From: Candidatus Pacearchaeota archaeon
Lineage (GTDB): Archaea > Nanobdellota > Nanobdellia > Pacearchaeales > GW2011-AR1
Length of the DNA: 34,805 bases
Assembly: GCA_023142835.1 (NCBI GenBank)
Contig: JAGLIS010000002.1
Location: 1-34,805 of the forward strand
Reading direction: 5' to 3'
Of this stretch, positions 2,040 through 17,729 are shown piece by piece; position 1 is the stretch's first letter, and each line of letters begins with the position of its first letter. Position numbers and translations under genes: made by a program. The notes under the pieces are model-generated. The model did no database searches, was not told the origin of the DNA, and saw only the letters and a program-made list of their open reading frames with translations.

Positions 2040-2074
2040 TGAAGATTTGTTGCTTGGCTTCGCCCAAATTTTAA

Positions 2075-2333: not shown

Positions 2334-2846
2334 TTATTTTTTACTCATAAATTTTTTTAGATATTGGACTTTTTTTCCTAGCTTTACTTTTTCTTCTGGT
2401 ACCAGCTTATACCCCCTGTAATAAGTATCGTAAAGATCTTGAATAGTCACTAATTTTACAGGAATTCCATAGAAATCTGCACTGACTGTTTTTTTGGGAA
2501 GACTTCCCTGTTTTATGCCTTTACAACCTTTACCCATCCTATCAATATCTATTTTTAATTTTTCTTTTTTAATTTCTAGAGTATCCCATTCAGGCATAAA
2601 TTTAAATTTAAATTTACTTTTTTCTAAAGCTTGCATGACTTTTGGATAATCTTTCTCTTTAATTAGAATATCAATATCATGAACCCTGAGACTTTCATCT
2701 TTTGTATGAAAAAAAGTAGCATAACTTGAATATATTACAAAATTTATTTTATTCTCCTTTAAGATCAAGAGTATCTTTTTAGCAAAGGGCAAAAGCTTCT
2801 TGAAATGTTCTTTATTCTTTGGAAAGATATTTGTTTTCTTCACCAT
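2334..2846 (-). CDS. Pol-beta-superfamily nucleotidyltransferase-fold protein, 170 aa, function unknown
   Basis: From the ORF track. ...FVIYSSYATFFHTKDESLRVHDIDILI... matches the minimal NTase pattern ([GS]-S ... D-x-D). TATA-like TATTTAAAA lies about 27 nt upstream on the minus strand (about 2869-2877). Confidence 0.55.
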   Translation of the reverse strand: MVKKTNIFPKNKEHFKKLLPFAKKILLILKENKINFVIYSSYATFFHTKDESLRVHDIDILIKEKDYPKVMQALEKSKFKFKFMPEWDTLEIKKEKLKIDIDRMGKGCKGIKQGSLPKKTVSADFYGIPVKLVTIQDLYDTYYRGYKLVPEEKVKLGKKVQYLKKFMSKK

Positions 2847-2940
2847 CTTTATTTTATTAGAAATTTATGTTTTAAATACTTAGTGAAAATTTTCTAACCC
2901 CAGATTATTTCATTTTCTTTTTTCTAAAAAGAAACAAAAA

Positions 2941-3008
2941 GCGGGCTTATCTCTCTAATACATTGGTCGTCTTACCGTCCTCCCCCAACCTGAAAAGAAA
3001 AATTAAAA
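2941..3008. repeat. Right arm of the inverted repeat: block B' 2941-2955 GCGGGCTTATCTCTC, block A' 2994-3008 AAAGAAAAATTAAAA
   Basis: Exact reverse complements of 2106-2120 and 2075-2089. The spacer between blocks is 38 nt here versus 16 nt in the left arm. Confidence 0.7.
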
Positions 3009-3133
3009 CTCTGCGTCGCTTCGCTCCTTGCCACGCCTTGCAGGCTCTCACTTCGTTCCGCTCTGTAAAATTAACTTCTCATAACTCTATGTAGCATATA
3101 AATTCTTATAAATAAATAAATCTCTTTCTAATT

Positions 3134-3757
3134 ATGATTCAGCTTTATCTAGGCCCTATGAAATCTGGAAAAAGTACTAGACTTATAGAATATTTTAAGA
3201 GGTTAAGTATTGCAAATATTCCTTATGTTATTTTTCAGCCTTCAATCAATATTAGAGATGGGGACAAAATTCAATCTCGCAATGGGACTTCCTTGTCCGC
3301 TTCTCCCATAGATTTTAATGATAAAAACTATTTAGTTAATATGGCTAATGCCATGAATAATGTTGATTTCATCGGTATAGACGAGATTTTTATGTTTCCA
3401 GAGTTTGATAGTGGTAGCAATTCTTTTGTGGATCTTATTCGTTTTTTTGGGAGGGAGAAAAATATTATTATAGCGTCTCTTGATAGCGATTTTCGTGGTA
3501 ACATTTTTCCCATAGTCAATAATTTGATGAAGATTCCAGAAATCCGTATTGAGAAGCTGACTGCAATATGTCATTATTGTAAACAAGAAGCTACCAGAAC
3601 GCAAAAATATATTAAAGGACAACCAGCTAATTACAACTCTTCCACAGAAGTTTCCGTAGAGGGGGTGGATAAAAATGTATCTTACGTTCCAGTCTGTGCA
3701 GGATGTCATAAGGTTCCGGGAAAACCAAATTTAAAAATACCCTTCGGGAAATTTTAG
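3134..3757 (+). CDS. tdk: Thymidine kinase
   Basis: MIQLYLGPMKSGKSTRLIE (P-loop), IGIDEIFMF (Walker B-like), DSDFRGNIF, and C-terminal zinc-ribbon cysteines CHYC...CAGCH. This is the typical TK1-type layout. TATA-like CTTATAAATAAA lies about 26 nt upstream. Confidence 0.9.
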   Translation: MIQLYLGPMKSGKSTRLIEYFKRLSIANIPYVIFQPSINIRDGDKIQSRNGTSLSASPIDFNDKNYLVNMANAMNNVDFIGIDEIFMFPEFDSGSNSFVDLIRFFGREKNIIIASLDSDFRGNIFPIVNNLMKIPEIRIEKLTAICHYCKQEATRTQKYIKGQPANYNSSTEVSVEGVDKNVSYVPVCAGCHKVPGKPNLKIPFGKF

Positions 3758-3851
3758 AGTTAAATACTAATAAGTTCAAATCCCCTGTAGAAATTTAAAA
3801 CTCCCCAACCAAAACCTCTTAATTTAAATAATCTAATCGTCACTACCCCTT

Positions 3852-4265
3852 ATGCCTTACAATTTTTTAGAACATACTGCAGACGTAAAATTTAGAATTG
3901 AAAGTCCGACTCTAGAAGAAATGTTCAGTTCATCTGCCGACGCCTTAAACGAAACAATCCGTGGAAATATTAAAATTTTAGAACAAAAAGAAAAGAATTT
4001 TGAAATCGAAGGAAAAGACTTAGAAGAACTACTTTATAATTTCTTAGAAGAACTTTTATTTTTATTAGATACTGAAAATTTTTTAATATCAAAAATTAAA
4101 GACATCAAAATTGACCTAGAAAACAAAAAACTAAAATGCGTTGCCACTGGGGACAAAGCAGAAAATTACAAATTTACCAATGATGTAAAAGCAATAACCT
4201 ATCACGAAATGTTCATCAAAGAAAAAAATGGCAAATTCATCTGCGAGGTAACCTTGGATGTATAA
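3852..4265 (+). CDS. Archease (RtcB activator/chaperone)
   Basis: The N-terminus MPYNFLEHTADVKFRIESPTLEEMF is the archease signature (F.EHTAD...). Size is 137 aa. It overlaps the downstream rtcB by 8 nt. Confidence 0.9.
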   Translation: MPYNFLEHTADVKFRIESPTLEEMFSSSADALNETIRGNIKILEQKEKNFEIEGKDLEELLYNFLEELLFLLDTENFLISKIKDIKIDLENKKLKCVATGDKAENYKFTNDVKAITYHEMFIKEKNGKFICEVTLDV

Positions 4266-5676
4266 AAAACAATTAAAAAAAATATCTGAAACAGAATATG
4301 AACTTCCAAAAACTGGAAAAATGAATGTTCCCGGAAAATTATTTTTATCTGAGAAACTCTTAAACGACGTCGAGGAAAACGCCTTAAAACAAATTGCCAA
4401 TGTTGCAATGCTACAGGGAATTCAAAAATACTCTATAGGTCTTTCAGATATGCATCTAGGCTACGGTTTCCCCATCGGTGGCGTCGCTGCATTTGACATA
4501 GAAACAGGAGTTATCAGTCCGGGAGGAGTCGGCTACGACATTAACTGTTCAGTCCGTTTACTAAAAACAAACTTAAAAGAAACAGATTTAAGAGGAAGAG
4601 AAAAAGAAATTACACATTCACTATTCAGAACAATCCCTTCAGGAGTCGGTCGCGGGGGAAAATTAAATCTCAATGAAAACGAACTAAATAATGTCCTTAC
4701 CGACGGAGCACAATGGGCAGTTGAAAAAGGTTATGGCAAAAAAGAAGATTACTTGCATACCGAAGAAAACGGAAAATTAGAAAATGCTGACCCTTCAGCA
4801 GTATCAAAAAGAGCAAAAAGCAGAGGAATGCCCCAATTAGGTTCGCTAGGAGCAGGCAACCATTTTTTAGATATATTAATCGTAGATGAAATTTTTGATA
4901 AAAGTATAGCAAAAGTTTTCGGTTTAGAAAAAGGACAAGTTGTCATTATGATTCACTGTGGTTCTCGAGGACTCGGACACCAAGTAGCATCAGATTATAT
5001 CAAACTAATGGACGATAAATACGGACATCCAGATTTTGATAGGGGATTAGTAAATGCTCCAATAAAATCAGAACTCGGACAAAAATATCTAACCGCCATG
5101 AACTGTGCTGCAAATTTTGCATTCGCAAATAAACAATTAATCACTCACTGGATTCGCGAAGATATGAAACATTATTTCCCAAATTTCAAGACAGAAGTTG
5201 TCTATGATATCTGCCACAACATTGCAAAATTTGAAGAGCACATTATCGACGGAGAAAAGAAAGAAGTTTTAGTTATGAGAAAAGGAGCAACAAGATCTTT
5301 TGGTCCAGGTAGAAAAGAAATTCCAGAAGATTATAGGAAAGTTGGTCAACCAGTTTTAATTCCAGGCTCGATGGGAACCTCAAGTTATGTTTTATGTGGA
5401 ACAAAAAAAGCAGAGGAAATTTCATTTGGTTCTACAGCACACGGGGCGGGAAGGATAAAAAGCCGAACTCAGGCACACAAAGATATGACTTTTGAAGAAG
5501 CAAAAAAAGACATGGAAAAACGAGGAATTTTTGTTGAATTCGGCAACCAAAAAGGTTTGATTGAAGAATCCCCATTTTCCTATAAAAATATTGAAGAAGT
5601 TGCTAGAGTTTCTCACGAGGCTGGTATTGGGAATAAAGTTGCGAAGCTGAAACCGTTGTTAGTTATCATAGGTTAG
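4258..5676 (+). CDS. rtcB: RNA-splicing ligase RtcB (3'-phosphate/5'-hydroxyl RNA ligase)
   Basis: 472 aa with GYDINCSVRLL, GAGNHFL, HCGSRGLGHQV and GSMGTSSY..STAHGAGR motifs. Normal length, so no intein. Confidence 0.95.
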   Translation: MYKKQLKKISETEYELPKTGKMNVPGKLFLSEKLLNDVEENALKQIANVAMLQGIQKYSIGLSDMHLGYGFPIGGVAAFDIETGVISPGGVGYDINCSVRLLKTNLKETDLRGREKEITHSLFRTIPSGVGRGGKLNLNENELNNVLTDGAQWAVEKGYGKKEDYLHTEENGKLENADPSAVSKRAKSRGMPQLGSLGAGNHFLDILIVDEIFDKSIAKVFGLEKGQVVIMIHCGSRGLGHQVASDYIKLMDDKYGHPDFDRGLVNAPIKSELGQKYLTAMNCAANFAFANKQLITHWIREDMKHYFPNFKTEVVYDICHNIAKFEEHIIDGEKKEVLVMRKGATRSFGPGRKEIPEDYRKVGQPVLIPGSMGTSSYVLCGTKKAEEISFGSTAHGAGRIKSRTQAHKDMTFEEAKKDMEKRGIFVEFGNQKGLIEESPFSYKNIEEVARVSHEAGIGNKVAKLKPLLVIIG

Positions 5677-5706: not shown

Positions 5707-6741
5707 ATGGTGATTTCAAATTTGCTTGGGTTTTTTCTTCCGCTAATTTTTTTAGTAGGAATTGTCACGAGTTACACTGACATTCGACAAGGGAAAATTT
5801 TCAATAAACATCTTTTATGGGCATTGGTAATTATGATAATTATTTATCTTGTTATTTTGATTGGACCATGGTTACTTGAGGATAATTATTTCTTTAATCT
5901 TGGATTAAATTTTTTGATATCCTTTGTAATCGGATTTTTGTTTTGGCATTTAGGACTCTGGAGTGCAGCAGATTCTAAACTATTTGCATTATATTCTCTT
6001 TTAATTCCCCTAACAGTTTATTCCAAAACCTATTATTCTTTTTTTCCTTCATTAACCCTATTGATTAATTCCTTTGTCCCATTTTTCGTAGGATTTTCTT
6101 TAAAATCTTTCTTTACAGATTCTATTGATCAAAGGAAAAAATTCTTTTCAAATATCAGTATAAAGGATATTATTACTCTCATTATGCTAATTTTTGTTAT
6201 GATGTGGATTCCTTCGTTATTTTTTAAGGTTTTAAATATTCAATTTCTTTTTATAATTAGTTTAGCAATAATGTTTGGATTGGCATTTATTTTAAAAAAA
6301 CTTTTTGATAAAAATCTTTTTTTTGTTATGATTGGTTTGACCATCGTTAGAATTATTTTTGATTATGCTTATGTTAGTACTTTTGAATTTTTAAAACAGT
6401 TCTTTTATCTTTCGATTTTGCTTATTATAATTTTTATGTTGATTAATTCTAGTTCGCAGTTTTTTGTGAAGAAAATTTGGATTAACAATATTAGACCTGG
6501 GATGATTCTTGCTGGAAAAGTGTATGATGGGGAAAAAGAACTCAAGTTGGAACACCCGGCGGAAGGTCTTACAATAAAGGATGTGAAAAAAATCATGAGA
6601 CTATATAAAAATAAAAAGATTGGAGACGAAGTGAATATTTATCAGACGATTCCATTTGCTCCATTTATATTTGCTGGGGCTTTACTTACAATTGTTCTTC
6701 GTGGAGATTTTCTAATTTCTTTGATAAAACTTCTTACATGA
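5707..6741 (+). CDS. A24-family aspartic prepilin/preflagellin peptidase (PibD/FlaK/EppA-like) with a soluble insert before the last TM helix
   Basis: Polytopic membrane ORF. First Asp context is SYTDIRQGKI; the second lies in WSAADSKLFA (G-x-G-D-like). The terminal IPFAPFIFAGALL resembles the PFGP..L end of PilD/FlaK-family enzymes. Residues about 255-315 are hydrophilic. Confidence 0.7.
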   Translation: MVISNLLGFFLPLIFLVGIVTSYTDIRQGKIFNKHLLWALVIMIIIYLVILIGPWLLEDNYFFNLGLNFLISFVIGFLFWHLGLWSAADSKLFALYSLLIPLTVYSKTYYSFFPSLTLLINSFVPFFVGFSLKSFFTDSIDQRKKFFSNISIKDIITLIMLIFVMMWIPSLFFKVLNIQFLFIISLAIMFGLAFILKKLFDKNLFFVMIGLTIVRIIFDYAYVSTFEFLKQFFYLSILLIIIFMLINSSSQFFVKKIWINNIRPGMILAGKVYDGEKELKLEHPAEGLTIKDVKKIMRLYKNKKIGDEVNIYQTIPFAPFIFAGALLTIVLRGDFLISLIKLLT

Positions 6742-6785: not shown

Positions 6786-7193
6786 ATGGAGATTCATCAT
6801 GAAGATAACTTTGTATTAATTGAAATAAATCCAGAGATTTATCTATTGGAAGTCGTTTATTCTGCAGCTTATGTTTTTTTAGATAGAGCCTATATTCGGC
6901 TTGATGGCGACGCTGACAAAAAGATAATTGTTGAGTTGAGACCTAAAGAAGATTATTCCTTGGAACAACTAAAGAATGAATTCAATAATGAGTTGCTTAA
7001 TTATGCGTTCCATAAATCTCAGATTGAAAATTCAGGAGACATACGGAATATTTTGATGCAACGGGCTCTTTTTATTCCAGAGATAAATAAAATTGAAAAA
7101 GACGATTTATTGAATGAAGAATTTTCTGGAGATCCTAATGAAATTTTTTCACTTGAAGATTCTTCAGAAAACGAAGTTCCGTGGGAGGAATGA
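6786..7193 (+). CDS. HxsD-like protein (His-Xaa-Ser system accessory protein) with an acidic C-terminal tail
   Basis: 135 aa. ...LKNEFNNELLNYAFHKSQ... resembles the LLNDYxLRE signature that I recall naming the HxsD family. The context also supports it (rSAM/SPASM plus a His-x-Ser repeat peptide downstream). The stop overlaps the next start (ATGATG at 7190-7195). Confidence 0.5.
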   Translation: MEIHHEDNFVLIEINPEIYLLEVVYSAAYVFLDRAYIRLDGDADKKIIVELRPKEDYSLEQLKNEFNNELLNYAFHKSQIENSGDIRNILMQRALFIPEINKIEKDDLLNEEFSGDPNEIFSLEDSSENEVPWEE

Positions 7194-7411
7194 TGGAAAG
7201 TTTTGAGACCTTTTTAAATTTGAAATTCTACAACATTGATTCTATAGAAGAATCGATTGAAGATTTTGGAGAAGTTTGTGACATTTTTTTTGATAAGTGT
7301 TCGGGGGAGATAAAAGTTATATCTTTCGACGCTGAGACGAGTTCCGAGGAAATTTTTCGAGAATTTTGCAATTATGTTTTGGGGGTTATGAAAAATAATC
7401 AAGTAATATGA
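7190..7411 (+). CDS. Small acidic protein (73 aa), apparent short paralogue of the preceding HxsD-like protein
   Basis: The ORF track starts at GTG 7181. I prefer ATG 7190 (or 7193), which is preceded by GGGAGG (7183-7188) and overlaps the upstream TGA. ...SSEEIFREFCNYVLGV... parallels SLEQLKNEFNNELLNYAF in the upstream protein. It overlaps the rSAM start (ATGA at 7408-7411). Confidence 0.45.
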   Translation: MMESFETFLNLKFYNIDSIEESIEDFGEVCDIFFDKCSGEIKVISFDAETSSEEIFREFCNYVLGVMKNNQVI

Positions 7412-8790
7412 AAGAATATCGATTGAATTTTTTAAGGAAGAAAAAGATTGGCGAGAAATATTTAGTGACTACAGATCATGGAAGTTGGATATATTTGGGA
7501 ACAGAAGAGTTAGATAAATTAATATCTAAAGATTTGGATGAATCACTTTATGCTCGCTGTGAGGAGAAAGGAATAATTATTACAGAAGATAATAAGTCAG
7601 ATATTATAAAAAATATTCGTGAGAAATATGCGTTTCTTTCTAGCGGGACTTCACTTCATATTATTGTAGCGACGCTGAGATGTAATCTTCATTGTGTTTA
7701 TTGTCACGCTTCTTCTTGTCCGCAATCTTTTGAAGGTTATGATATGGATGAAAAAACGGCGAAGAAGACAGTTGATTTTATTTTTCAATCTCCTGCAAAA
7801 AATATTACAATTGAAATTCAGGGAGGAGAACCTTTGTTAAATTATGATGTTATAGAATATATTGTTAAGTATTCTAAGAAGTTGAATGAAGTTCATAAGA
7901 AAAATTTGAGATTGACGGTTGTCACTAATTTTGGAATGATGGATGGTGAGAAATTAGATTTTTTTGAAAATGAAGATGTTGATATTTGCACTTCACTTGA
8001 TGGTCCAAAAGAATTGCATGAGAAGAATCGGAATTTTGGAAGTCATGGACCTGTAGTTAAGTGGCTTGAAGAAATTAGGAAACGGGAGAAAAATGGAATC
8101 TTACATAAAAATGCGGTTTTGACTGTGACTCATGAAAGTTTAAAATATCCTCGAGAGATTGTTGATGAATATGTTAAAAATGGGGTGAAGGATATTCATT
8201 TGAGATTCTTGAATAATCTTGGAAACGCTAAACAAGATTGGGAAAAAATTTGTTATAGTTCTGAAGAATTTATAGACTATTGGAAGAAATCCTTGGAATA
8301 TATTTTTGAATTAGATAAATCGGGAATTTTTCTGAGAGAGCGTGGAGCTACAATAATCATGAAGAAAATTCTTGGTGGAGAGCCTAATTATCTTGAGCTA
8401 AGAAGTCCTTGTGGTGCTGCGATCGGACAGTTGTTATATAATTATGATGGTGCGATCTATACTTGTGACGAGGCACGAATGGTAGGAGAAGATATTTTTA
8501 AATTAGGAAATGTTAAGGAAAATAATTATTCTGAAATTATTTCTTCGAATCAAACTTGCGGGATCGTGGCTGCTTCCATAAATGATACACAAATTTGTGA
8601 TTCGTGTGTTTACAAACCTTACTGCGGAATCTGTCCTGTTTGTAATTATGCAGAGCAAGGAAGTATCATCGCGAAAATCCCGCAAACAATGAGATGTCAA
8701 ATTTACAAAGCACAGTTTGATTATCTTTTTGATAAAGTCTTAAATGATTCAATAGCAAAAGAAGTTCTTTTAACTTGGGTTAAAAATTAG
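7408..8790 (+). CDS. Radical SAM/SPASM peptide maturase (HxsB/HxsC-like)
   Basis: CNLHCVYCHA (C-x3-C-x2-C), IQGGEPLLNYD, and C-terminal SPASM cysteines (..SPCGAA..YTCDE..CDSCVYKPYCGICPVC..MRCQ). A roughly 90-aa N-terminal extension precedes the cluster motif and could be a substrate-recognition domain. Confidence 0.85.
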   Translation: MKEYRLNFLRKKKIGEKYLVTTDHGSWIYLGTEELDKLISKDLDESLYARCEEKGIIITEDNKSDIIKNIREKYAFLSSGTSLHIIVATLRCNLHCVYCHASSCPQSFEGYDMDEKTAKKTVDFIFQSPAKNITIEIQGGEPLLNYDVIEYIVKYSKKLNEVHKKNLRLTVVTNFGMMDGEKLDFFENEDVDICTSLDGPKELHEKNRNFGSHGPVVKWLEEIRKREKNGILHKNAVLTVTHESLKYPREIVDEYVKNGVKDIHLRFLNNLGNAKQDWEKICYSSEEFIDYWKKSLEYIFELDKSGIFLRERGATIIMKKILGGEPNYLELRSPCGAAIGQLLYNYDGAIYTCDEARMVGEDIFKLGNVKENNYSEIISSNQTCGIVAASINDTQICDSCVYKPYCGICPVCNYAEQGSIIAKIPQTMRCQIYKAQFDYLFDKVLNDSIAKEVLLTWVKN

Positions 8791-8824: not shown

Positions 8825-9073
8825 ATGAAAGAAGGGGTAAAATCAAAGATTCCAAAATTAAAGAAGAAGATTAGCGCTTTTTTGGTTGGTGAGGAAGGGA
8901 AAATATCAAAAAATTCTTTATTAAAAATAGGTGGTGTTTTGACAGGATTGTCCTCTGCAACGATTGTTGCAGGAGTAAATAATTTGCATTTGAGCTATAC
9001 AGATTCGACTGCAACGGCTAAGCATGGAAATCATTCGAGTCACTCACAACACGGTAGCCACTCGAGTTATTAA
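8825..9073 (+). CDS. His-Xaa-Ser repeat peptide (HxsA-like putative precursor), 82 aa
   Basis: C-terminus ...TATAKHGNHSSHSQHGSHSSY has five His at exact 3-residue spacing, then Tyr and the stop. The N-terminus is Lys-rich, followed by the hydrophobic segment LLKIGGVLTGLSSATIVAGV. The ORF track begins at TTG 8810; ATG 8825 is preferred because of the TATA spacing. Only 2 nt separate its stop from the next ATG. Confidence 0.65.
   Translation: MKEGVKSKIPKLKKKISAFLVGEEGKISKNSLLKIGGVLTGLSSATIVAGVNNLHLSYTDSTATAKHGNHSSHSQHGSHSSY
9023..9070 (+). repeat. Coding His-x-x triplet repeat (HGN HSS HSQ HGS HSS Y)
   Basis: cat gga aat cat tcg agt cac tca caa cac ggt agc cac tcg agt tat. CAYTCGAGT occurs twice. 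Confidence 0.9.
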
Positions 9074-9075
9074 CT

Positions 9076-10992
9076 ATGGAATCAATTCAAACACCCCAAG
9101 CTATTCCGCCACAAAGTAACAAGTGGAAGATTTTCATCATTCCGATTATATTAATTATCGTTTTCCTTGCCATTGGAAATCTCTATTTATTTTATTTTTC
9201 AGGTGATGATTTTTTGCAGGATTATGACGAAGTGATAGATTATGAAACTCTCGTGGACGAAGTTAATTTTTCTCATGAGTTAACTCAAGATTATACTAGA
9301 AATCCTATTTCTGTTGTTGATTTAGATATTAGCAGAGAAGGAAATTTGTTTGTTACGGATTCTTCAGGACATAGAATAATGGTTTTTGATTCTGATTTAA
9401 ATAATATTAGGAATATTGGTGAGAAATATAGTGAAGATAGTGGTTCAATTATTAGTGGTAGAGTTACTAACGTTGAGGAAATGATGCAATTCCCTGGTTC
9501 TTCTGCATTAGCTGGAAATTATATTTATGCGATAGATAGAATGAATAGAAGGATTAATACTTATACACTAAATGGAGATTTTGTCGAATGGAGAAATTTT
9601 CCTGAAGAAGTTATTTCTCAAACAGATGTTGGAGAAGCTCCCCATATTGATGGACAGAGAGTTAGTTTGATTGTTTTAAATAATGGTGATTTGCTTCTTC
9701 ATTCGTTGACAAGTAACAATGTTTATATTCTAGATTTTGAAACTTTAGCCATTAAGAAAACTTTAACTTTTGAGGGTATGAAGGCTTTTGGCGTAGGTAA
9801 ATCTTTGAAAGGATTTTATGTAATTGATTCCCTAAATAAGAAAGTGTATGAATATAGTGAAGATCTTTCTTTGATTGGGACTATTGACAGTGAGCTCATT
9901 AATCCAGTCGATGTTTGTGTTTTGTCAGATAAGTTTGTGATTACCGATGAGGGTGATGATTCCTTAAAATTATTTAATTTAGATTTTAGTTTTATAGAAA
10001 AGAAAGAGCTTACAGGAATTTCTCCAGATTTTATTGCTTGTGAAGAAGACGTAGTTTATATTTTTGATGATAGTGAAGGTAGAGTTGTTAAGATTAGTTT
10101 AGATAACCTTGAAGTTAAAAAGGAAGTTTCTGTTATTTCTCAATTGAATATTTTGAAGGGTGCTCCTATCTTTATTGCATCAAGTCAGATGAATGGTGAT
10201 GTTGCGATTGAGGATTCTCAAAATAATTTAATTCTTATTTTGGATGAAGATTTAAATTATAAAAATATTATTGGAATTGGTTTTGGAGATTCCCCTAATA
10301 AATTTAAATTCCCTACTGGACTTTCCTATGATAATGATGGAAACCTTTATGTTTTAGATAGGTGGAATACGAAGATTAAGATTTATGATTCCGATTATAA
10401 TTATATTAGATCAATTGATGATATAGGTTACTCTGGTAATGATATGATTGTGTTAGATAACGGGAATATTATGTATTTGGATGTTGATACTTATACTGTG
10501 AAATTTATTGACAGCGATGGAAATTTGGTTGGGGAATTAACTGAAGAGAAAGGGATGATTGCCCCTCATGGGCTTGGTATTTACAAGAGTAATTATATTG
10601 TTAGTGACGAAGTTCCTAGAGAATCTGATGGACATTACGATGTTTACTTCAAAGAGTATGACAAGAATTATAATTTTGTGAAATCTCATGTGATGCCAAA
10701 TCCAACTGTTTTTGAGACTTCTGAAACTTTGTCGATTTATGGGGATATGGTTATTATGCCAGATAATGATGAGAATAATTTGTTCTTTTATGATTTGATT
10801 AATGATGAGATTATTGAGAATATTACAGTTTCGCACGCTAGTTTTTTTGGGGCTATAGAGGTAGAGTTGCCAGCAGGTAAGGATTATGTTTTAGTCACTA
10901 ATCAGATGGATGGTAAATTATTTAAGATTGATATTAATTCTCGGAAGATAGTTGACGAAAAGAGGATTTCACTTTATTATAAAGAATATTAA
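9076..10992 (+). CDS. Membrane-anchored NHL-repeat beta-propeller protein, 638 aa
   Basis: N-terminal TM helix WKIFIIPIILIIVFLAIGNLYLFYF. It has repeated NHL-type blades, e.g. GNLFVTDSSGHRIMVFDSDLNNIRNIG and PTGLSYDNDGNLYVLDRWNTKIKIYDSDYNYIRSI. Confidence 0.75.
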   Translation: MESIQTPQAIPPQSNKWKIFIIPIILIIVFLAIGNLYLFYFSGDDFLQDYDEVIDYETLVDEVNFSHELTQDYTRNPISVVDLDISREGNLFVTDSSGHRIMVFDSDLNNIRNIGEKYSEDSGSIISGRVTNVEEMMQFPGSSALAGNYIYAIDRMNRRINTYTLNGDFVEWRNFPEEVISQTDVGEAPHIDGQRVSLIVLNNGDLLLHSLTSNNVYILDFETLAIKKTLTFEGMKAFGVGKSLKGFYVIDSLNKKVYEYSEDLSLIGTIDSELINPVDVCVLSDKFVITDEGDDSLKLFNLDFSFIEKKELTGISPDFIACEEDVVYIFDDSEGRVVKISLDNLEVKKEVSVISQLNILKGAPIFIASSQMNGDVAIEDSQNNLILILDEDLNYKNIIGIGFGDSPNKFKFPTGLSYDNDGNLYVLDRWNTKIKIYDSDYNYIRSIDDIGYSGNDMIVLDNGNIMYLDVDTYTVKFIDSDGNLVGELTEEKGMIAPHGLGIYKSNYIVSDEVPRESDGHYDVYFKEYDKNYNFVKSHVMPNPTVFETSETLSIYGDMVIMPDNDENNLFFYDLINDEIIENITVSHASFFGAIEVELPAGKDYVLVTNQMDGKLFKIDINSRKIVDEKRISLYYKEY

Positions 10993-11771
10993 AGATTATT
11001 TTTTATGTTAGGGAATATAACAATTCTATTGAATTTGTTTTTTAATTCTTCAGGTATTATCATTTCTGTTTTTATTAGTTCAGCATTTCCGATTATGAAA
11101 ACTGGACGATCAAAGTATTTTGTTTCCTTCGTAATTATTTGATTTAGACATTCTTTTTTGCAAGGTTCTATTTTATAATTGTATTCGGAAGTATTGCACT
11201 TAGGATATATACATCTCCTTGTTACTGATATTACTGAGTTCCCTAGATAGAGAGTTATGTTGCTGTTTTCAGGGAGGTCTATTCCTTGTGGTGGGACATC
11301 TGTTTCGAATCTTTTTATGTTGAGGTCTTTTAAAAAATCAAGAAGTTCCGGATTCGATAATGAGTTATCTTTAAAGTTATCCGGAGATTCCTTAAGACAT
11401 CCAGTCATTATTTCTGGACCCTTCTTCATTCTTATTAAAACTCTTCCATAATTTATTTTTACTTCGGGGAAAGCCTCTAGAATTTCTAAGAGTCCTAAAT
11501 CATTAATCGTTACTTCGAATTTTTTATTGATTTCTGAAATGTCTTTTATTAAATGTTTTAAATTATTGATACCCAAGTTAGTTAGTAAAGGAGTTAGGAG
11601 AACAAATGTCTTATTTTTTTTAATGCAGAATTCAAAGATTTCTTTTGTCTCGGAAAATGTTGGAATTTTTCTTTCACAAAACTCATTTCCAAAATATATT
11701 AAATTGTATTTATCTAAATACTTTAGATTTTGTAATTCTTCTAAAGAGCTTATTTTTATTCCGAATTCCAT
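10989..11771 (-). CDS. U32-family Fe-S protein, UbiV-like (260 aa)
   Basis: The N-terminus ...LIYFGNEFCERKIP parallels UbiV ...IYLGEAVCSKRR. The later segment RRCIYPKCNTSEYNYKIEPCKKEC (C-x4-C-x11-C-x3-C) gives a 4-Cys set like the UbiV 4Fe-4S ligands. ATG 11771 is chosen over the track's TTG 11783, giving a TAATG junction with the upstream gene. Confidence 0.6.
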   Translation of the reverse strand: MEFGIKISSLEELQNLKYLDKYNLIYFGNEFCERKIPTFSETKEIFEFCIKKNKTFVLLTPLLTNLGINNLKHLIKDISEINKKFEVTINDLGLLEILEAFPEVKINYGRVLIRMKKGPEIMTGCLKESPDNFKDNSLSNPELLDFLKDLNIKRFETDVPPQGIDLPENSNITLYLGNSVISVTRRCIYPKCNTSEYNYKIEPCKKECLNQIITKETKYFDRPVFIIGNAELIKTEMIIPEELKNKFNRIVIFPNIKNNL

Positions 11772-12715
11772 TAATAATAACAATTGTTCTTACAATCAAA
11801 TTTGTAATATCGACTGAAAAGTTCCTTGCATTTAGTTTTGTATTCTTCCTTATCTAGATTCATTAGGCTAAGAGTTTTTTTTATTAACTTGGCATCGTTG
11901 ATTTTCCTTATATGACTATTATTTCTTCCAACAATTTTTAGATTTTTTATTCCAATTTTTTCTAGTTCTTTAATAAAACAGATTCCACAGAATGGATTAA
12001 ATTTTTTTAGAATTGTTAAAGTATTCTCTTGAATTATCTTTTCATCTTTTTTCGCTTCCTCATTTATGAAATAAATTTTTTGTTTGAAAGGAATATTACA
12101 AGTTGTTGTAAAAACTTTATGTTCTGGAATGTGACATCTTGAGCAAAATCCGTCTAGGTTTCTACAGAATTGATTGAGTATCATTACTTCGAATTCTATT
12201 TCTGGATTATTTAGGGTAATTGATTTTAACTCTTCAATAGATAAATGTCTTGGGAGAATAATTTTTTTTATCCCGAGATTTTTGTAGAAATTTACCGCAT
12301 TTGAATTTAGACAGACGTTGATACAACTTAAAATAATTTTATTTTTCGGTGCATTCTCTTTTAAAAATTTTATTATTGATAATTCCGAAACTATAAAATT
12401 GTCTACGTAGTCTTTAAATATCATAACTTGTTCTTTGGCTCTTGCTAATTGTCTTGAATTGTAAAATGACTTATTTAATGTAAGAGAAAGTTCTGCGGGT
12501 TTTTTTGCCAAATTATTTATTCTATTTATTTCTTTTATTTGTTCTAAGTTCTCAAAGTTTGCTCCTCTTTCAAATCGTTCATTAACAGAATCCCACTTAT
12601 TATTTTCATTTTCACCTTCAGTTAAATTATTTACACCTAGATAAATTTCTTCAATTCCTAATTTATTATATTCCGCTATATCTTCTATCAAACTCGCGGG
12701 CGCTACTATTTTCAT
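11771..12715 (-). CDS. U32-family Fe-S protein, UbiU-like (314 aa)
   Basis: The N-terminus MKIVAPASLIEDIAEYNKLGIEEIYLG resembles the U32 start (ELLAPAG...GADAVY.G). EVMILNQFCRNLDGFCSRC keeps the C-x4-G-x-C core of the U32 signature as I recall it. Further Cys occur in TTTCNIP and FCGIC. It joins the upstream rSAM gene by an ATGA overlap. Confidence 0.7.
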   Translation of the reverse strand: MKIVAPASLIEDIAEYNKLGIEEIYLGVNNLTEGENENNKWDSVNERFERGANFENLEQIKEINRINNLAKKPAELSLTLNKSFYNSRQLARAKEQVMIFKDYVDNFIVSELSIIKFLKENAPKNKIILSCINVCLNSNAVNFYKNLGIKKIILPRHLSIEELKSITLNNPEIEFEVMILNQFCRNLDGFCSRCHIPEHKVFTTTCNIPFKQKIYFINEEAKKDEKIIQENTLTILKKFNPFCGICFIKELEKIGIKNLKIVGRNNSHIRKINDAKLIKKTLSLMNLDKEEYKTKCKELFSRYYKFDCKNNCYY

Positions 12716-14895
12716 TTTTGTTTATAGTTAAAATTATTTATCATCAGTATTTGAGATATTAAATCTACATAATTTAGACCTTCTTTCGTTATTTCTATTT
12801 TGTTATTTTCAATAATTATTATATTTTTGTTTTGCAAATAATTTAGGCTATCCGAAAAACGGAGCTTATATTTTTCTTCGATTTCAAAATTTAATAATCT
12901 TGATTTTAAAGATATTTTATGAAGTTCATCTTGTTCACCTTGTAGTTCGAATTTTTTGTAGTTGTCTTTTGTCATGTTTGCAAAATATGTTTTGCCTACA
13001 AATGAGAATGTGTTAATACCAATCCCTAAAATGTTTCCTTGATTTAGAAAATTTATTTGATATTCAAATTTTGGTTTTCCTATTTTATGGAAATCTTCTG
13101 CTGTATATTGTCGGTATCCGTTGCTATCTAAAATTAGCCTTCCCTTTTTATTTAGCCAATCAAGTTTTTTTGAGTATTCAATAAAAAATAATTCATCACT
13201 TTCAAGAATTCTTTTGCTGTTGTGCAGTGGCTGGTATGTTACATTGTCAGGGTTTAATGAAAGCATGGTTTCCATTTCGGATTCGTATGAGTCCATATCA
13301 TCCAGATAGACACCATAAATTATGTCTATACTTTTTGTGAAAGTATAATTTTTTAATGAGTTAAAAAAGGAAGTCATTTCTTCTATTGTCGAGGGTCTGC
13401 CAAACTCTTGGAGAATTTTATCGTTGAAACATTGGACTCCAATGCTTAATCTTGTAATGTAGTTTTGTAAGTAATCAAAAAATTTTTTATCAAAATTTGA
13501 TGGGAAAGTTTCCATTGTTATTTCTTTGATGTTCTCTTTTGGAAGATACGAAAATAGTTTATCGAATATTTTTTGGAAATTTTCTTTCCCTATTGTTGTT
13601 GGCGTTCCACCTCCGATGTAAATGTATCTGATGTTATTCGTAATTAGGACTTCCTTAAATTTTTCAATTTCCTTAAGCATAAAATCAATGTAACTCTTTA
13701 TATGTTGATTTGGATATTTTTGAATCCCGCAGAACTTGCATCGCGAATTACAGAATGGGAAATGGAGATAGAGCCCAAATTCTTTTTCAACTGGAGAATT
13801 TTTTATTTTTTCTATTAATTCTTCGAAAGAACTTGGAGTTTTCCATTGGTCAAGTGTTGGGTATTGCATAAAAAAATCTGAATGTCTAAAATAGATAGGG
13901 ATGTAATCTGCCTGGTTTTTTGTTTCTGGAAGCATGTAAGTTAAATTTTTTTGGAGATTGGAAAAGTATTTATCCTTCAGAGATTCTCCTCGGAATTTTG
14001 TTAGAGGGTCTTTAGTAATTTCGTCTTTCACCTTTATCCCTCCAAGACACCTTTCTTTTATTTTACAACTTTGACATATATCATCCGATAATGGTTCTGA
14101 AGCATTTTCTTTCGCCTTGGAAATTATTTCTTTGAATTCAAGAGGGGAAGTTCCTAAGATATTTCCTAAGACTACTGAAGAATAACTGTTTAATTTTATG
14201 TCGCCGTTTTCGTTTATGTAAATGAAGTTATTGCCATCGTCGTTTTGTCCACCATCGCAGTATTCCAAAGCTTTTCTTGAGACAAGACAAAGTGGAAATG
14301 CGTTCGCAATTTTTATTGGATTTCTAATTTTGTTCTCTTTAGAATTCCATATTACTATTTTTTCAGATAGTTTTAGAAGATCTAAAAGATAATCTTTCTC
14401 TTCGCTATTTATGTCCCTTAAAAAGAAAAAATCTTCTAAAGGAATTTCCCTTATGTCTTCAAATATTTTTTCTAATGGAAGATTTTTTTGGAAGACCATA
14501 CATACCATAAATTTGATTTTAGGATTTTCATTAATTCGTCTTGTTAGTGATTCCTTATATTCCAATATTTGGTCTGCGTTTTGAAAAGAGAGGAGACAGT
14601 AATCAATAAATTGAGATATTTCGTCGAATCTTTTTATTCGTTGGATTGAAATATTTGCTATGACTTTTAAGTTTGCAATTTTTATTTTTCTTAAGAATTC
14701 TAAAATGTCTGGATGTTCGAAGATATCTCCACCAGTTAGTCTTAATGTATCAATATCATTTTCTTTTGCTATAGCAATTATATTATCTAAAGATTTTTCT
14801 GAAAGAAATGTCGGAGCGAGTTTGCTTTTGTAACAGTAAGAACAGCCAATGCTACAGACATTTGTGATACTGACTTGGAGCTCTTTTAGTTGCAT
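12712..14895 (-). CDS. Fused double radical-SAM protein: N-terminal rSAM with a SPASM/twitch-like auxiliary motif plus a C-terminal HemN/HemW-like (class C) rSAM, 727 aa
   Basis: Module 1 has NVCSIGCSYCY (residues 13-22), RLTGGDIF, ..EYCDGG.. and CQSCKIKERCLGG (C-x2-C-x5-C-x-GG). Module 2, from about residue 370, has LYLHFPFCNSRCKFCGI and YIGGGTPT, typical of HemN-like enzymes. Confidence 0.85.
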   Translation of the reverse strand: MQLKELQVSITNVCSIGCSYCYKSKLAPTFLSEKSLDNIIAIAKENDIDTLRLTGGDIFEHPDILEFLRKIKIANLKVIANISIQRIKRFDEISQFIDYCLLSFQNADQILEYKESLTRRINENPKIKFMVCMVFQKNLPLEKIFEDIREIPLEDFFFLRDINSEEKDYLLDLLKLSEKIVIWNSKENKIRNPIKIANAFPLCLVSRKALEYCDGGQNDDGNNFIYINENGDIKLNSYSSVVLGNILGTSPLEFKEIISKAKENASEPLSDDICQSCKIKERCLGGIKVKDEITKDPLTKFRGESLKDKYFSNLQKNLTYMLPETKNQADYIPIYFRHSDFFMQYPTLDQWKTPSSFEELIEKIKNSPVEKEFGLYLHFPFCNSRCKFCGIQKYPNQHIKSYIDFMLKEIEKFKEVLITNNIRYIYIGGGTPTTIGKENFQKIFDKLFSYLPKENIKEITMETFPSNFDKKFFDYLQNYITRLSIGVQCFNDKILQEFGRPSTIEEMTSFFNSLKNYTFTKSIDIIYGVYLDDMDSYESEMETMLSLNPDNVTYQPLHNSKRILESDELFFIEYSKKLDWLNKKGRLILDSNGYRQYTAEDFHKIGKPKFEYQINFLNQGNILGIGINTFSFVGKTYFANMTKDNYKKFELQGEQDELHKISLKSRLLNFEIEEKYKLRFSDSLNYLQNKNIIIIENNKIEITKEGLNYVDLISQILMINNFNYKQK

Positions 14896-14993: not shown

Positions 14994-17729
14994 ATGTTAT
15001 TTAGAAGAGGCAATATAGGGAAAGGTCTTTTTTTCTTTTTAATAATTATATTTTTGGCAGTTGGAGTTACGGCAGTGACAATTAATGTTTGGACTTATGT
15101 TGAGAGAGGCACTAAGAATCCTGAAGCTCCTATAGAAAGACAAGAATGGGTAACTGATGACTATGCTCTTATAAATGAATTTGAAGATTGTGATTATTCC
15201 GAAGGAGAGTATGCTGTAGGATTTAAATTAGTTAGAAAGGATGGAGCAGAGAGTGTAAATGCTCAGATAATTTGTGAAAACCAAGGAACCAATATTACTT
15301 TTACCCCTAACAACGCTTTTTCTAATGCAGTTAATAGGACATGTACCTCAGGTCCAGATGTTATGCAGAATATTGCCGTGGCTAGTTTTGCAAATAATCT
15401 TTCAGGAGATGGATATAGTTGTACTGGAAGTACTGGATGTAGTGGAATGACAAATTGTGGATATGAAGCAGGTTTTCCGAAGGTTTGTACAAGTTTTGCA
15501 GATAGTACTACCTGTGAGGATACTGATGGTGATTGTCAATGGCGGTCTGCGGCAACGGGTTATTGTGGTGGTCTTGCTTATTGTAACGGTGCTTACGATA
15601 ATGAAGGAGATTGTAACGGAGATTCAAATTGTACGTGGGTAGATGCTATTCCTTCAGGATGTGAAGCAGATGATGAAATGACTTATGATCCTAACTGTCC
15701 TTCAAAAAATTCGGAAGGTAGTTGTTTAAGTTATCAAGGATGTTCGTGGGGTGTTACTAATTGTAATTCTTATGATAAAAATAAAGGAACTTGCGATTCT
15801 AAAGATGGGTGTAGTTGGGACGGGTATATAAATTGTACTACTTACGACAAGACTGACTGTTTAACTCATAGTGGTGATTTGGGGAGTTGTTCTTGGATTC
15901 CGATGGGGGCGACAGATTCAGAATTTGGGCTAGGACAGATATGTCCAGCTAGTGATCCAATTATGGTAGGGGTTGCAGGTTATAATGGTGAAGGAACTGA
16001 ATATTGTAGAGGAGAAGAAATTTCTGCAGGAGTGACTTACTCTAGTTTATACAATGAACAAGTTGCAGGGATTCTTCCGAAGTGTGCACGAGCAGATAAT
16101 CCTAATTGTAATTATAGATTTGCAGGGGAAGGTTGTTTCTGGTATTTTGCGGGTGCAGATGGGGGTTGTCCAGATAATCATTATATCTCCGGTGTTAGAG
16201 GTTTTGTCGGAGATGATAGTATTGTCGTTGGAAGAGATATTTATATTCAGTCTTATTGTTGTTCTATAGGAGCAATTGATCACTCTTTAGAAGTTCCTGG
16301 AGGAGGAGATGAAGATTGCGATGGTTTAATCAATGAAGGTTATTTCGCTCCAGATTCTATAAGTGCTCATCTTGAAGATAATATTTGTGTTAATATTCCT
16401 TGTTCTATTCCAGGAATTGTTAAATCTAATTCTATTTATTGCCAATCCGAAGGAGCTTATTATTTTGATGGTAATTCTTCAGGAGGGGTAACCGGGACAG
16501 TCTATCCAGATTTTCCTAGATTTTTATTTACTGTTGATTATGATTTAGATAAAGATTCTTGTATCTGTAAGTTCGGTGAAGGTAATTGGTCTGATGATAT
16601 TGATGGGTGGGCGCCTACTTTGACAAGCGGTCCAGGAACTTGTTGTGAGTCTGGTACGAATACTGCTGATGAAAAAGAGTTTTCTATTACTGGTAATTGG
16701 GATGGTTCCATCTCATGTTGTAATAATCGTGTAGATGTAAGTGGAGATAGGACTGTTTCCATTGGAGGACGTTGTCTTCAGACAAAAGCTTATTGGACAG
16801 ATATGCAAGGTAACGCGTTAGGGTCTACAGATTTAGGGGATAGCGTTCAGATAAGAGTAGATAATGTAGAGCTTGATGTAGGAACTGAAGTCGTCTTTGA
16901 GATTTGGGAGGATGATGTAGAATGTATTTTTGGTTTGCCATTTGGGTGTGGAGATGATATGATTCGGGCTGCTATTACAGGTACCGTTGATAATAATCAT
17001 AATTTAATTGCGGTTTGGACAAATGATGCGGATGATATGGATTTGACAAATGATTATGGAGAATTTTATTTTAAAGTTAAGTATGATGATATTGGTGATT
17101 TGGTTACTGATGAGGAATATAAAGAAAGTAGTAATCAATTAGAAGTTAATCAAGATTATAACAATGCCCCAATATCGGTTAACATACTCTCACCAGCATG
17201 CGGAGATTATTTTAATGCAAGTTCAGACACAATTGATATCGAGATTAATGCTCAAGACGAAGACGATATCATCGAAGGACATCTAAGTATCAACGACTTA
17301 GAGATTGGAACTTTTAAAAATGGAAATACAATAATAGGCAATATTTTCTCTAAAGGTGGTAATTATAAAATTGTCGCCGAGGCTGTTAATAGTCGAGGAC
17401 AAAATAAAAGAGCAATTTCAAATATAATGATAATTGACACAACGACAGACGGAGAATACGTTGCAGCATGCATCATCAAACCTGAAGACTACAGCGACAT
17501 CCCATTAAGTTCTGTAGAATTTGACGCTTCAACAAGTAAAGGTATTCAATACGATTTTACCACAGGAACTACAACAGAACTTAGTTTAAGCAAATTAAAT
17601 TTTGATTGGTATTTCAGCGACAGAAGCGATCGTAATATGGATGGAAATAATGAAATGTCATACAAGTTTTGGAAGAACTTTGGGAATGTAGGGAGTAATT
17701 GGGCAACATTAAAAGTATCTATTATTTAA
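14994..17729 (+). CDS. Large Cys-rich secreted/surface protein (911 aa), putative adhesin, with an N-terminal signal or prepilin-like anchor
   Basis: N-terminus MLFRRGNIGKGLFFFLIIIFLAVGVTAV. It carries five C-x5-6-C-x-W repeats (residues about 165-301). A DEDCDGLINEG motif at about 16308-16343 resembles the D-x-DCDG-x-x-DEG metal-binding-type motif of many surface proteins. C-terminal Ig/PKD-like segments are present (..VEFDASTSKG..LNFDWYFSD..ATLKVSI). Confidence 0.7.
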   Translation: MLFRRGNIGKGLFFFLIIIFLAVGVTAVTINVWTYVERGTKNPEAPIERQEWVTDDYALINEFEDCDYSEGEYAVGFKLVRKDGAESVNAQIICENQGTNITFTPNNAFSNAVNRTCTSGPDVMQNIAVASFANNLSGDGYSCTGSTGCSGMTNCGYEAGFPKVCTSFADSTTCEDTDGDCQWRSAATGYCGGLAYCNGAYDNEGDCNGDSNCTWVDAIPSGCEADDEMTYDPNCPSKNSEGSCLSYQGCSWGVTNCNSYDKNKGTCDSKDGCSWDGYINCTTYDKTDCLTHSGDLGSCSWIPMGATDSEFGLGQICPASDPIMVGVAGYNGEGTEYCRGEEISAGVTYSSLYNEQVAGILPKCARADNPNCNYRFAGEGCFWYFAGADGGCPDNHYISGVRGFVGDDSIVVGRDIYIQSYCCSIGAIDHSLEVPGGGDEDCDGLINEGYFAPDSISAHLEDNICVNIPCSIPGIVKSNSIYCQSEGAYYFDGNSSGGVTGTVYPDFPRFLFTVDYDLDKDSCICKFGEGNWSDDIDGWAPTLTSGPGTCCESGTNTADEKEFSITGNWDGSISCCNNRVDVSGDRTVSIGGRCLQTKAYWTDMQGNALGSTDLGDSVQIRVDNVELDVGTEVVFEIWEDDVECIFGLPFGCGDDMIRAAITGTVDNNHNLIAVWTNDADDMDLTNDYGEFYFKVKYDDIGDLVTDEEYKESSNQLEVNQDYNNAPISVNILSPACGDYFNASSDTIDIEINAQDEDDIIEGHLSINDLEIGTFKNGNTIIGNIFSKGGNYKIVAEAVNSRGQNKRAISNIMIIDTTTDGEYVAACIIKPEDYSDIPLSSVEFDASTSKGIQYDFTTGTTTELSLSKLNFDWYFSDRSDRNMDGNNEMSYKFWKNFGNVGSNWATLKVSII
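15486..15896 (+). repeat. Five tandem protein-level Cys/Trp repeats: CTSFADSTTCEDTDGDCQW / CNGAYDNEGDCNGDSNCTW / CPSKNSEGSCLSYQGCSW / CNSYDKNKGTCDSKDGCSW / CTTYDKTDCLTHSGDLGSCSW
   Basis: Read directly from the translation. Consensus is C-x3-[YF/x]D-x3-G-x-C-x5-6-C-x-W. Confidence 0.8.

Follow-up and report, generated by a model that had tools for sequence, protein, structure and literature searches.

What does a three-gene cassette on the minus strand of an archaeal contig modify, and does it belong with the Hxs operon that it meets tail to tail? We addressed this question for a 34,805-nt stretch of DNA from a Candidatus Pacearchaeota archaeon (contig JAGLIS010000002.1, assembly GCA_023142835.1; hereafter the window), in which the gene for a fusion joining two enzymes of the radical S-adenosylmethionine (rSAM) superfamily is followed by genes for a U32-family Fe-S protein and for a 260-residue protein, p260 (Table 1). 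We consider it likely that the cassette encodes enzymes that mature an HxsA3-type peptide in an archaeal (DPANN) form of the HXS (His-Xaa-Ser) system. The observations behind this reading are gene content, strict co-conservation of the three genes, fusions between the parts, and the assignment of domains and cluster ligands. According to work published in 2026 (Li et al., Nat Commun, PMC13128918), the bacterial HXS system, HxsD-HxsB-HxsC-HxsA, keeps phage DNA from entering the cell; its protein families are defined in NCBIfam/TIGRFAM. In bacteria, HxsB and HxsC mature HxsA through N-terminal processing and a change of +8 Da (+C/-4H) on the last HxS repeat, a modification that needs both rSAM enzymes as well as HxsD, to which HxsC binds (PMC13128918).

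Table 1. The cassette, the Hxs operon and the adjoining NHL-repeat gene in the window
Feature	Coordinates	Strand	Description
rSAM-rSAM fusion gene	12712-14895	-	727 aa, ATG start
N-terminal rSAM module of fusion, aa 1-335	13891..14895	-	SPASM/twitch-type, likely HxsC counterpart
C-terminal HemN-like (class C type) rSAM module, aa 336-727	12712..13890	-	
U32-family Fe-S protein	11771..12715	-	314 aa, ATG start; PF01136
p260, remote U32 homologue	10989..11771	-	260 aa from ATG 11771
A24 (prepilin-peptidase)-like polytopic membrane protein	5707..6741	+	Heads the Hxs operon; weak Peptidase_A24 and Arc_PepC matches
HxsD	6786..7193	+	TIGR03976, 55 bits (cut-off 50)
HxsD-like small protein	7190..7411	+	73 aa; NF038315 HxsD_rel, 51.5 bits (cut-off 41)
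HxsB radical SAM/SPASM maturase	7408..8790	+	TIGR03978, 471.7 bits (cut-off 370)
HxsA3-type precursor	8825..9073	+	82 aa from ATG; NCBIfam HxsA3 E 2.4e-8
NHL-repeat protein	9076..10992	+	N-terminal hydrophobic segment; directly after HxsA; Pfam NHL E 3.6e-12

A first-pass annotation of the window, made from the letters alone, had described three genes with characteristic Cys motifs, coupled by ATGA and TAATG overlaps, and the open reading frames (all on the minus strand), coordinates, motifs and overlaps are all real. The start of the U32 gene overlaps the stop of the fusion gene by the 4-nt ATGA at 12712-12715, and the p260 start overlaps the U32 stop at TAATG (11769-11773). As called, the p260 frame ran from 10989 to 11783 (264 aa from a TTG); we moved its start to the ATG at 11771 (MEFGIK...) because its homologues all begin with MEFGIK or MEYGIK in the alignment. 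The same annotation had taken the largest protein to be a genuine rSAM-rSAM fusion, with a SPASM/twitch-like N-terminal and a HemN-like C-terminal module, and Pfam, NCBIfam and structure comparison bear this out. Pfam Radical_SAM (PF04055, E 4.5e-29) matches the protein in two separate stretches, each half scanned alone matches rSAM families in NCBIfam, and both modules place a CxxxCxxC motif within the PF04055 core, as expected of the rSAM superfamily. Matches of this strength, like that of the U32 protein to Peptidase_U32, are far outside what chance would give. The motifs comprise CSIGCSYC (C14/C18/C21) and CQSCKIKERC (C274/C277/C283) in the first module and CNSRCKFC (C382/C386/C389) and YIGGGTPT in the second. 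In a nine-sequence alignment of homologues, C14, C18, C21, C203, C213, C274, C277, C283, C382 and C389 are invariant, and C386 is kept in eight of the nine, the exception being L005/L006 (loci are given by our L numbers).

An assembly or frameshift artefact, against which the fusion had to be checked, is rejected: the identical protein is encoded in two independent assemblies, an NCBI contig from a metagenome-assembled genome (MAG; DAOWEC010000014.1, GCA_030638705.1) and a Logan assembly, and fused homologues exist in about ten lineages. A word-indexed search of 5.8 billion proteins returned just 8 full-length fused relatives (37-67% identity), and those that carry a name come from Woesearchaeota or Nanobdellota MAGs. 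With two more reached through p260 relatives and others from a metagenome scan, full-length fused homologues occur in about ten further diverged DPANN (Woesearchaeota/Nanobdellota) assemblies. Neither the protein database nor the genome and metagenome scans yielded an unfused version of the double rSAM. The three genes are nowhere scattered among these relatives: the order fusion, U32, ~260-aa gene is identical in every fusion locus, and the parts are sometimes joined further. Protein P0007 (L001) is a 981-aa rSAM-rSAM-U32 polypeptide in which the U32 domain follows the C-terminus of the double rSAM, and L002 has the same arrangement. L018 encodes the same 981-aa triple fusion as L001. L018, L055, L075 and L084 are labelled 'uncultured Methanosarcinales archaeon' yet contain DPANN-type genes, and these bin labels may be wrong.

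The cassette is accompanied by Hxs genes. HxsB, HxsD and the HxsD-like gene lie within ~10 kb of it in every fusion locus with enough flanking sequence to be scored (the window, L001, L003, L004, L005, L008, L010, L012 and L097). The orientation of the cassette relative to the Hxs genes varies from locus to locus (convergent, divergent or co-directional), and in L012 (GCA_014729995.1) everything forms one co-directional operon, A24-HxsD-HxsD'-HxsB-HxsA3-fusion-U32-p260. A peptide modification tied to the Hxs operon had been a weaker guess of the first-pass annotation, and it is now strongly supported by synteny; modification of RNA, which that annotation had also entertained, finds no contextual support. 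The precursor encoded in the window combines a Lys-rich leader, which contains FLVGEEGKISK, with a hydrophobic stretch and, at the C-terminus, HGNHSSHSQHGSHSSY; precursors at other cassette loci have FLxxEEGKISK in the leader and HSSY at the C-terminus in common. In the relatives, HxsD carries its Pfam annotation and the HxsD-like gene is kept between HxsD and HxsB.

One canonical Hxs component is missing from these loci. The HxsC hidden Markov model (HMM) found nothing in any fusion-bearing locus, and HxsC-like genes were found in Hxs loci that have U32-p260 without the fusion, namely L053 (Sulfurovum), L055 and L091 (Elusimicrobia). In profile-profile comparison by hhalign, the N module matches a 10-sequence HxsC/HxsC-like profile at 96.2% (E 2.1e-9, 237 columns), from the CxxxCxxC motif to the C-terminal C-x2-C-x5-C-x-G motif, and matches HxsB less well (65.6%). 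An earlier, shallow comparison with three bacterial HxsC sequences gave 0.45%, which is not significant; the match thus depends on the depth of the profile and is to be read with that caution. The N module has no match to TIGR03977 (HxsC; cut-off 267.9) and lacks the ~100-aa N-terminal domain that precedes the rSAM core of HxsC. Because it matches the deeper HxsC profile, and HxsB less, the fusion is best read as HxsC-like::HemN-like, and the relatedness of the profiles suggests that the N module probably works like HxsC. Thus, the N module is probably the system's HxsC counterpart, a role that the first-pass annotation had missed, though not a member of the curated HxsC family, and canonical HxsC appears to have been replaced by it.

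In predicted fold the N module is closest to peptide maturases. Its NCBIfam matches are weak and fall to MoaA, PapB (residues 118-291, E 1e-6) and SPASM (TIGR04085, E 0.006) families. Taking as the SPASM signature the seven-Cys pattern CX9-15GX4C...CX2CX5CX3C...C, or the reduced twitch set, we find five invariant auxiliary Cys (C203-x9-C213, then C274-x2-C277-x5-C283), the Cys of the X3C step being missing. The AlphaFold2 (AF2) model has a mean predicted local distance difference test (pLDDT) of 75.7, with the last ~70 residues unreliable (267-335 below 50), and its closest fold is SuiB (TMq 0.65, E 2.7e-10), followed by SkfB, BlsE, MoaA, ChlB and PqqE.

The C module gives full-length, colinear HMM matches of 120-155 bits to HemN-like enzymes, none above a curated cut-off: STM4012 scores 155.8 (cut-off 380), ChuW/HutW 127.7 (400), HemW 124.2 (205.4) and HemZ 124.2 (321.4). 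It carries the FPFCNSRCKFC and GGGTP motifs, has no Pfam match to HemN_C (PF06969) and scores 19 bits against TIGR03977 (HxsC). By these matches it is HemN-like in architecture only and no equivalog of any named family. A pairing of the STM4011/4012 kind, as in the Salmonella cluster, was dropped: the N module has no STM4011-type match, and the score of the C module falls well short of the STM4012 cut-off. Readings as heme or quinone biosynthesis were rejected, there being no such context genes. In L005/L006, Woesearchaeota loci from two independent assemblies (fusion gene at 2219-4417 in L005), the second module has lost the middle Cys (CEKKSKFC) and GGGTP has become INGGYPS, with the N module, U32 and p260 intact.

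Fusions elsewhere join the same parts in other ways. L011 encodes a SPASM-rSAM::U32 protein, then a p260-like gene, with a class-B rSAM gene upstream; L095 encodes SPASM-rSAM::p260 adjoining a U32 gene; and L067, a Woesearchaeota Hxs locus, encodes B12-rSAM::GT1::p260::methyltransferase (GT, glycosyltransferase) adjoining a U32 gene. From the arrangements in the window, L011 and L067, a methylase-type rSAM recurs beside the core, of class C in the window and of class B in the other two. L055 has a different double-rSAM fusion at 1804-4089 (-), of 761 aa with two HxsC-like cores, in an Hxs-type locus with U32-p260; the same locus encodes rSAM::GT2 (856 aa) and rSAM::flavodoxin-like (676 aa) proteins and several more HxsC-like paralogues. 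Fusion of rSAM enzymes thus seems recurrent in Hxs-type systems.

The assignment of the 314-aa protein to family U32, made in the first-pass annotation, holds. Pfam PF01136 scores 102.7 bits (cut-off 22.4; Peptidase_U32 E 2.4e-29), and the Cys arrangement is that of the family, C184-x6-C191-x14-C206...C243/C246, with FCRNLDGFCSRC corresponding to C184-x6-C191-x2-C194. In a 97% hhalign match to E. coli UbiU, C184 aligns to C169 and C191 to C176, both experimentally defined ligands in UbiU (PMC6747719). By these profile matches the protein is a bona fide U32. The name 'UbiU/V-like' is sound as an analogy and not as family membership, as neither this protein nor p260 reaches the UbiU, UbiV or TrhP cut-off; the U32 protein scores 63 bits against UbiU (cut-off 440) and 72.4 against TrhP (534), its best NCBIfam match, and is an equivalog of neither. 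A search of its profile against PDB sequences gave no match. Among 60 U32 proteins that partner p260, C184, C191, C206, C243 and C246 are conserved in 100% and C308/C312 in 98%; 77% have a Cys at position 26 (L26 in the window), and C194 and C296 are specific to the Woesearchaeota group. These 7-8 conserved Cys, three to four beyond the four canonical U32 ligands, exceed the need of one cluster, and the extra ones suggest that the partner U32 may hold a second Fe-S cluster, one that UbiU lacks.

Could the U32 protein, with or without p260, be a true peptidase that removes the HxsA leader, leaving the double rSAM alone to do the chemistry? The U32 family owes its name to the collagenase activity of some members. 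Bacterial HxsA does undergo rSAM-dependent N-terminal cleavage by an unidentified protease, and this cleavage needs no U32 protein (PMC13128918). The strictly conserved Fe-S-type Cys of U32 and p260, which match UbiU/UbiV ligands, and the presence in the operon of a better leader-peptidase candidate, the A24-like membrane protein, make a peptidase role for U32 very improbable. The A24-like protein occupies the same position in L003, L004, L008 and L012 and is also present in the Hxs loci L053, L055, L067 and L091; it recurs in Hxs loci of both archaea and bacteria. We regard it as a candidate HxsA leader peptidase.

The first-pass annotation had called p260 U32-like with UbiV-type Cys, which is right in most respects. 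Its motifs are FCERK (C32) and C187-x4-C192-x11-C204-x3-C208, and C32, C187, C204 and C208 are invariant in 74 sequences; C192, of the C-x4-C element, is not conserved, being present in just 51% of relatives. The resulting pattern, C-Xn-C-X16-C-X3-C, has the same layout as C39...C180-X12-C193-X3-C197 of UbiV. None of 21 members scanned has a Pfam or NCBIfam match, and a PDB sequence search with p260 found nothing. The AF2 model (pLDDT 91.3) has a fold like a triosephosphate isomerase (TIM) barrel whose best PDB match by TM score is the U32 peptidase Mk0906 (5d88, TMq 0.50), other TIM barrels scoring 0.3-0.4. Shallow profiles of 7 sequences each gave only 0.9% between p260 and U32 in hhalign; the deep p260 profile (74 sequences) matched the partner U32 profile (60 sequences) at 91.6% (E 8e-7). 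Because deep profiles and structure comparison show the relationship, we count p260 as a probable remote U32 homologue with a UbiV-like Cys pattern.

This family reaches well beyond the fusion loci. An exhaustive HMMER search collected, at E<=1e-3, representatives of 1,954 clusters (at 50% identity), of which 364 also pass E<=1e-30. Most members stand alone at 250-290 aa; some carry a fused class-I methyltransferase, glycosyltransferase or B12-rSAM domain. A genome scan found 79 loci, all in MAGs of uncultured lineages, including among archaea Woesearchaeota, Nanobdellota, Hadarchaeota, Bathyarchaeia, Undinarchaeota and Helarchaeota and among bacteria Thermodesulfobacteriota, Omnitrophota, Planctomycetes, Elusimicrobia and Chloroflexota; viral contigs yielded no p260 relatives. 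With our own HMMs, a U32 gene was located within ~150 bp of p260 in 60 of the 79 loci and within 7 kb in 5 more. The remaining 14 lack a U32 gene and make up a subgroup of their own, drawn mainly from MAGs of Thermodesulfobacteriota and other delta/proteobacteria. In place of U32, the U32-less loci L021, L024-L026, L028-L030, L033, L035, L042, L043 and L045 have a conserved set of upstream genes for proteins of roughly 335, 227, 139 and 243 aa. Over a third of the same-strand genes that flank p260 encode rSAM enzymes (34/100; 9 with B12-binding domains and 4 of HMPTM type), and the rSAM types beside U32-p260 pairs include B12-binding, SPASM, HMPTM-like and HemN-like enzymes.

This breadth bears on what the pair does. 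The characterised Fe-S U32 proteins are all O2-independent hydroxylases, of quinone or RNA bases (PMC6747719, PMC6599085, PMC10990095), and UbiU-UbiV is such a hydroxylase in heterodimeric form (Pelosi et al. 2019, PMC6747719). The pair could instead be an Fe-S redox partner of the rSAM enzymes, or a non-oxidative TIM-barrel enzyme serving them, in which case the cassette would still mature the Hxs peptide with no oxygen chemistry. The pair is widespread beside many different rSAM types, and flavodoxin-like, electron transfer flavoprotein (ETF), CCG and ferredoxin-type genes recur near it; the 7-8 Cys of the partner U32 would suffice for a second cluster, as fits an electron-transfer chain; and the role of the cluster in the known U32 enzymes is unresolved (PMC11574389). 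Dedicated rSAM reductases, however, are normally flavodoxins or ferredoxins and not TIM barrels, the fusions of p260 to class-I methyltransferases fit a logic of hydroxylation followed by O-methylation, and the precedent of the characterised enzymes is hydroxylation throughout. We therefore regard a purely auxiliary role of the pair as unlikely.

The cassette might also be independent of Hxs and owe its position to a shared genomic island, its substrate being RNA (TrhP/RlhA-like hydroxylation with rSAM methylation) or a small molecule such as a quinone-, tetrapyrrole- or glycan-linked cofactor. In favour of this, the U32 protein finds its best NCBIfam matches in TrhP and UbiU, and the C module has a likeness to HemW, ChuW and HemZ. 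Glycosyltransferases and methyltransferases are fusion partners in the wider p260 family, which is found mostly away from Hxs genes, and methyltransferases with UbiE-type matches lie near the cassette in L010. All of these family matches are, however, far below curated cut-offs, and no UbiT, UbiA, tRNA-modification or tetrapyrrole genes were seen nearby. Linkage to Hxs persists across 37-67% identity and three gene orientations, a single operon included; HxsC is missing exactly where the fusion occurs, and the N module is HxsC-like; and the fold of that module is closest to peptide maturases. An Hxs-independent cassette is thus improbable, and this and the two other alternatives discussed above all rank below maturation of an HXS peptide.

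For the HXS-maturation reading, a sequence of steps can be proposed. The substrate, the order of the steps and the chemistry are what we infer from the observations, and the antiviral or surface role is suggested by analogy with bacterial HXS, whose function is established for the E. coli-type system alone (PMC13128918). The substrate would be the HxsA3-type precursor encoded 2 kb from the cassette, with its H-x-S repeat tail ending in HSSY. HxsB, together with HxsD and the HxsD-like protein, would carry out the canonical Hxs step, and the N module, as HxsC counterpart, could abstract an H atom from the HxS tail or crosslink it. The HemN-like module would add a one-carbon (C1) unit from SAM, which is chemically plausible because bacterial HXS installs +C/-4H (PMC13128918). 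U32 and the UbiV-like p260 would form an Fe-S heterodimer that oxidises or hydroxylates, independently of O2, a (hetero)aromatic side chain, either His or the invariant C-terminal Tyr; alternatively, the pair could supply or accept electrons for the rSAM steps. Removal of the leader would fall to the A24-like membrane peptidase, and the cell surface would be where the product is active. More generally, and tentatively, the U32/UbiV-like pair might be an O2-independent hydroxylase or oxidase of ribosomal peptides or proteins that works in a physical complex with rSAM enzymes; rSAM, U32 and p260 would make up a widespread and so far unrecognised anaerobic modification machine of uncultured archaea and bacteria, whose DPANN form yields a hypermodified HxS-tail effector with an antiviral or cell-surface role. 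This wider proposal is a possibility that we hold with much less confidence than the assignment of the cassette to Hxs maturation.

Several points weigh against these proposals. The precursor is below the NCBIfam cut-offs (HxsA3 33.7 bits against 65; HxsA4 E 2.4e-7), its HxS repeats being visible all the same, and in L004 no HxsA can be recognised. Linkage to Hxs cannot be scored for L007 and the short contigs, which stop too early. Some sequences in the HxsC-like profile come from U32-p260 loci, so that the profile may lean towards the N module. In hhalign, p260 reaches 1.4% against E. coli UbiV, and UbiV-type single sequences are likewise non-significant. Since most U32-p260 pairs are found without Hxs genes in the 10 kb around them, the pair is a general module rather than one specific to Hxs. 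The degraded motifs of L005/L006 suggest that in that lineage the HemN-like module may be dispensable, inactive or just structural. Both chemical steps, the addition of C1 and the anaerobic hydroxylation of His or Tyr, are entirely inferred. The oxygen donor of the known U32 hydroxylases is prephenate (PMC10990095); a reduced DPANN genome may lack the shikimate pathway, and the supply of prephenate is doubtful.

The surroundings of the cassette add the following. The NHL-repeat gene converges on p260, and the two share 4 nt at their 3' ends (10989-10992); NHL proteins occupy the equivalent position in L003, L005 and L008, and one adjoins the U32-p260 pair in L080. L003 and L008 show the tail-to-tail overlap of NHL and p260 genes as well. 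At 14994-17729 (+), divergent from the fusion gene, lies the gene for a Cys-rich protein of 911 aa that has a hydrophobic segment at its N-terminus and matches nothing in Pfam, NCBIfam or PADLOC. Large proteins are encoded at its position in L003 (883 aa) and L008 (938 aa), and other loci are flanked by giant Big_13, PKD or Laminin_G surface proteins. A scan with PADLOC v2 gave no specific match, only generic viperin-like rSAM matches. At 3134-5676 (+) the window encodes a housekeeping thymidine kinase and archease directly followed by the RtcB RNA ligase, as is typical of an archaeon. An Rfam scan of the window found two tRNAs, tRNA-Lys(UUU) at 1964-2040 and tRNA-Ser(GCU) at 33677-33757, and nothing else. 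A promoter/terminator scan gave counts equal to those in shuffled sequence; it used bacterial models, which do not apply to archaeal DNA.

DPANN archaea, which live as surface-attached symbionts, have few biosynthetic genes, so that an investment of ten genes in a single small modified peptide points to an important role against viruses or in host interaction. If the proposed chemistry is true, the peptide would be the first non-quinone, non-RNA substrate of Fe-S U32 enzymes and a new substrate class for anaerobic hydroxylation. The chemistry behind the +8 Da of bacterial HXS is unsolved, and a C1-transfer-type rSAM and a U32 pair provide concrete hypotheses for the HxS tail. The p260 family, with about 1,950 clusters, is a probable short partner subunit of one U32 subfamily and merits a family definition, and its study brings to light a recurrent triad of rSAM, U32 and p260. 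We found no paper on the combination of rSAM-rSAM fusion, U32 and p260, which the first-pass annotation had likewise thought undescribed, and none that connects U32 proteins with rSAM peptide maturation or with Hxs.

How, then, does the cassette compare with known systems? With the RNA hydroxylases TrhP and RlhA (PMC6599085, PMC8754641) the 314-aa protein shares the U32 domain and the Fe-S Cys motif; it lacks the C-terminal extension (the TrhP profile has 449 positions) and an RNA-modification context. The C module has the FPFCxxxCxFC and GGGTP motifs of HemN, HemW, ChuW/HutW, HemZ and STM4012; unlike these enzymes, it is fused behind a SPASM-type rSAM and has neither HemN_C nor a tetrapyrrole context. 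The N module resembles SuiB, SkfB, PapB and PqqE in its CxxxCxxC and C-terminal auxiliary Cys motifs and in having a precursor peptide encoded nearby; it differs from them in having 5 conserved auxiliary Cys instead of the full 7-Cys SPASM signature, in lacking an N-terminal RRE domain and in a C-terminal region that is modelled at low confidence.

The likeness to UbiU-UbiV lies in a long and a short U32-type gene that adjoin each other and are translationally coupled, with the CX6C...C...C ligands kept in the long protein and, in p260, a distant N-terminal Cys and a C-Xn-C-X3-C group as in UbiV. In contrast to UbiU-UbiV, the pair in the window is far below the UbiU and UbiV cut-offs, p260 has no detectable sequence similarity to UbiV, UbiT and a quinone context are missing, the long subunit has 3-4 additional conserved Cys, and the pair is fused or linked to rSAM enzymes, its presumed substrate being a peptide.

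The closest comparison is with bacterial HXS. As there, HxsB and HxsD are recognised above their curated cut-offs, H-x-S repeats mark the C-terminus of the precursor, a second, HxsC-type rSAM is present (here, putatively, the N module), and the leader is probably removed and the product exported or located at the surface. Unlike the bacterial system, that of the window belongs to a DPANN archaeon, and in its HxsC-like enzyme the N-terminal domain of ~100 aa is missing and a HemN-like rSAM is fused on. The HxsA3-type precursor is a short one of 82 aa in which a hydrophobic segment takes the place of the peptidoglycan-binding domain, and the U32 protein, p260, a second HxsD-like protein, the A24-like membrane peptidase and the NHL protein are added. 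HXS has been described as a four-gene system almost confined to Pseudomonadota (99.7% of systems in that phylum, >99.8% with four genes; PMC13128918); the window would represent an archaeal, enzyme-richer variant of it.

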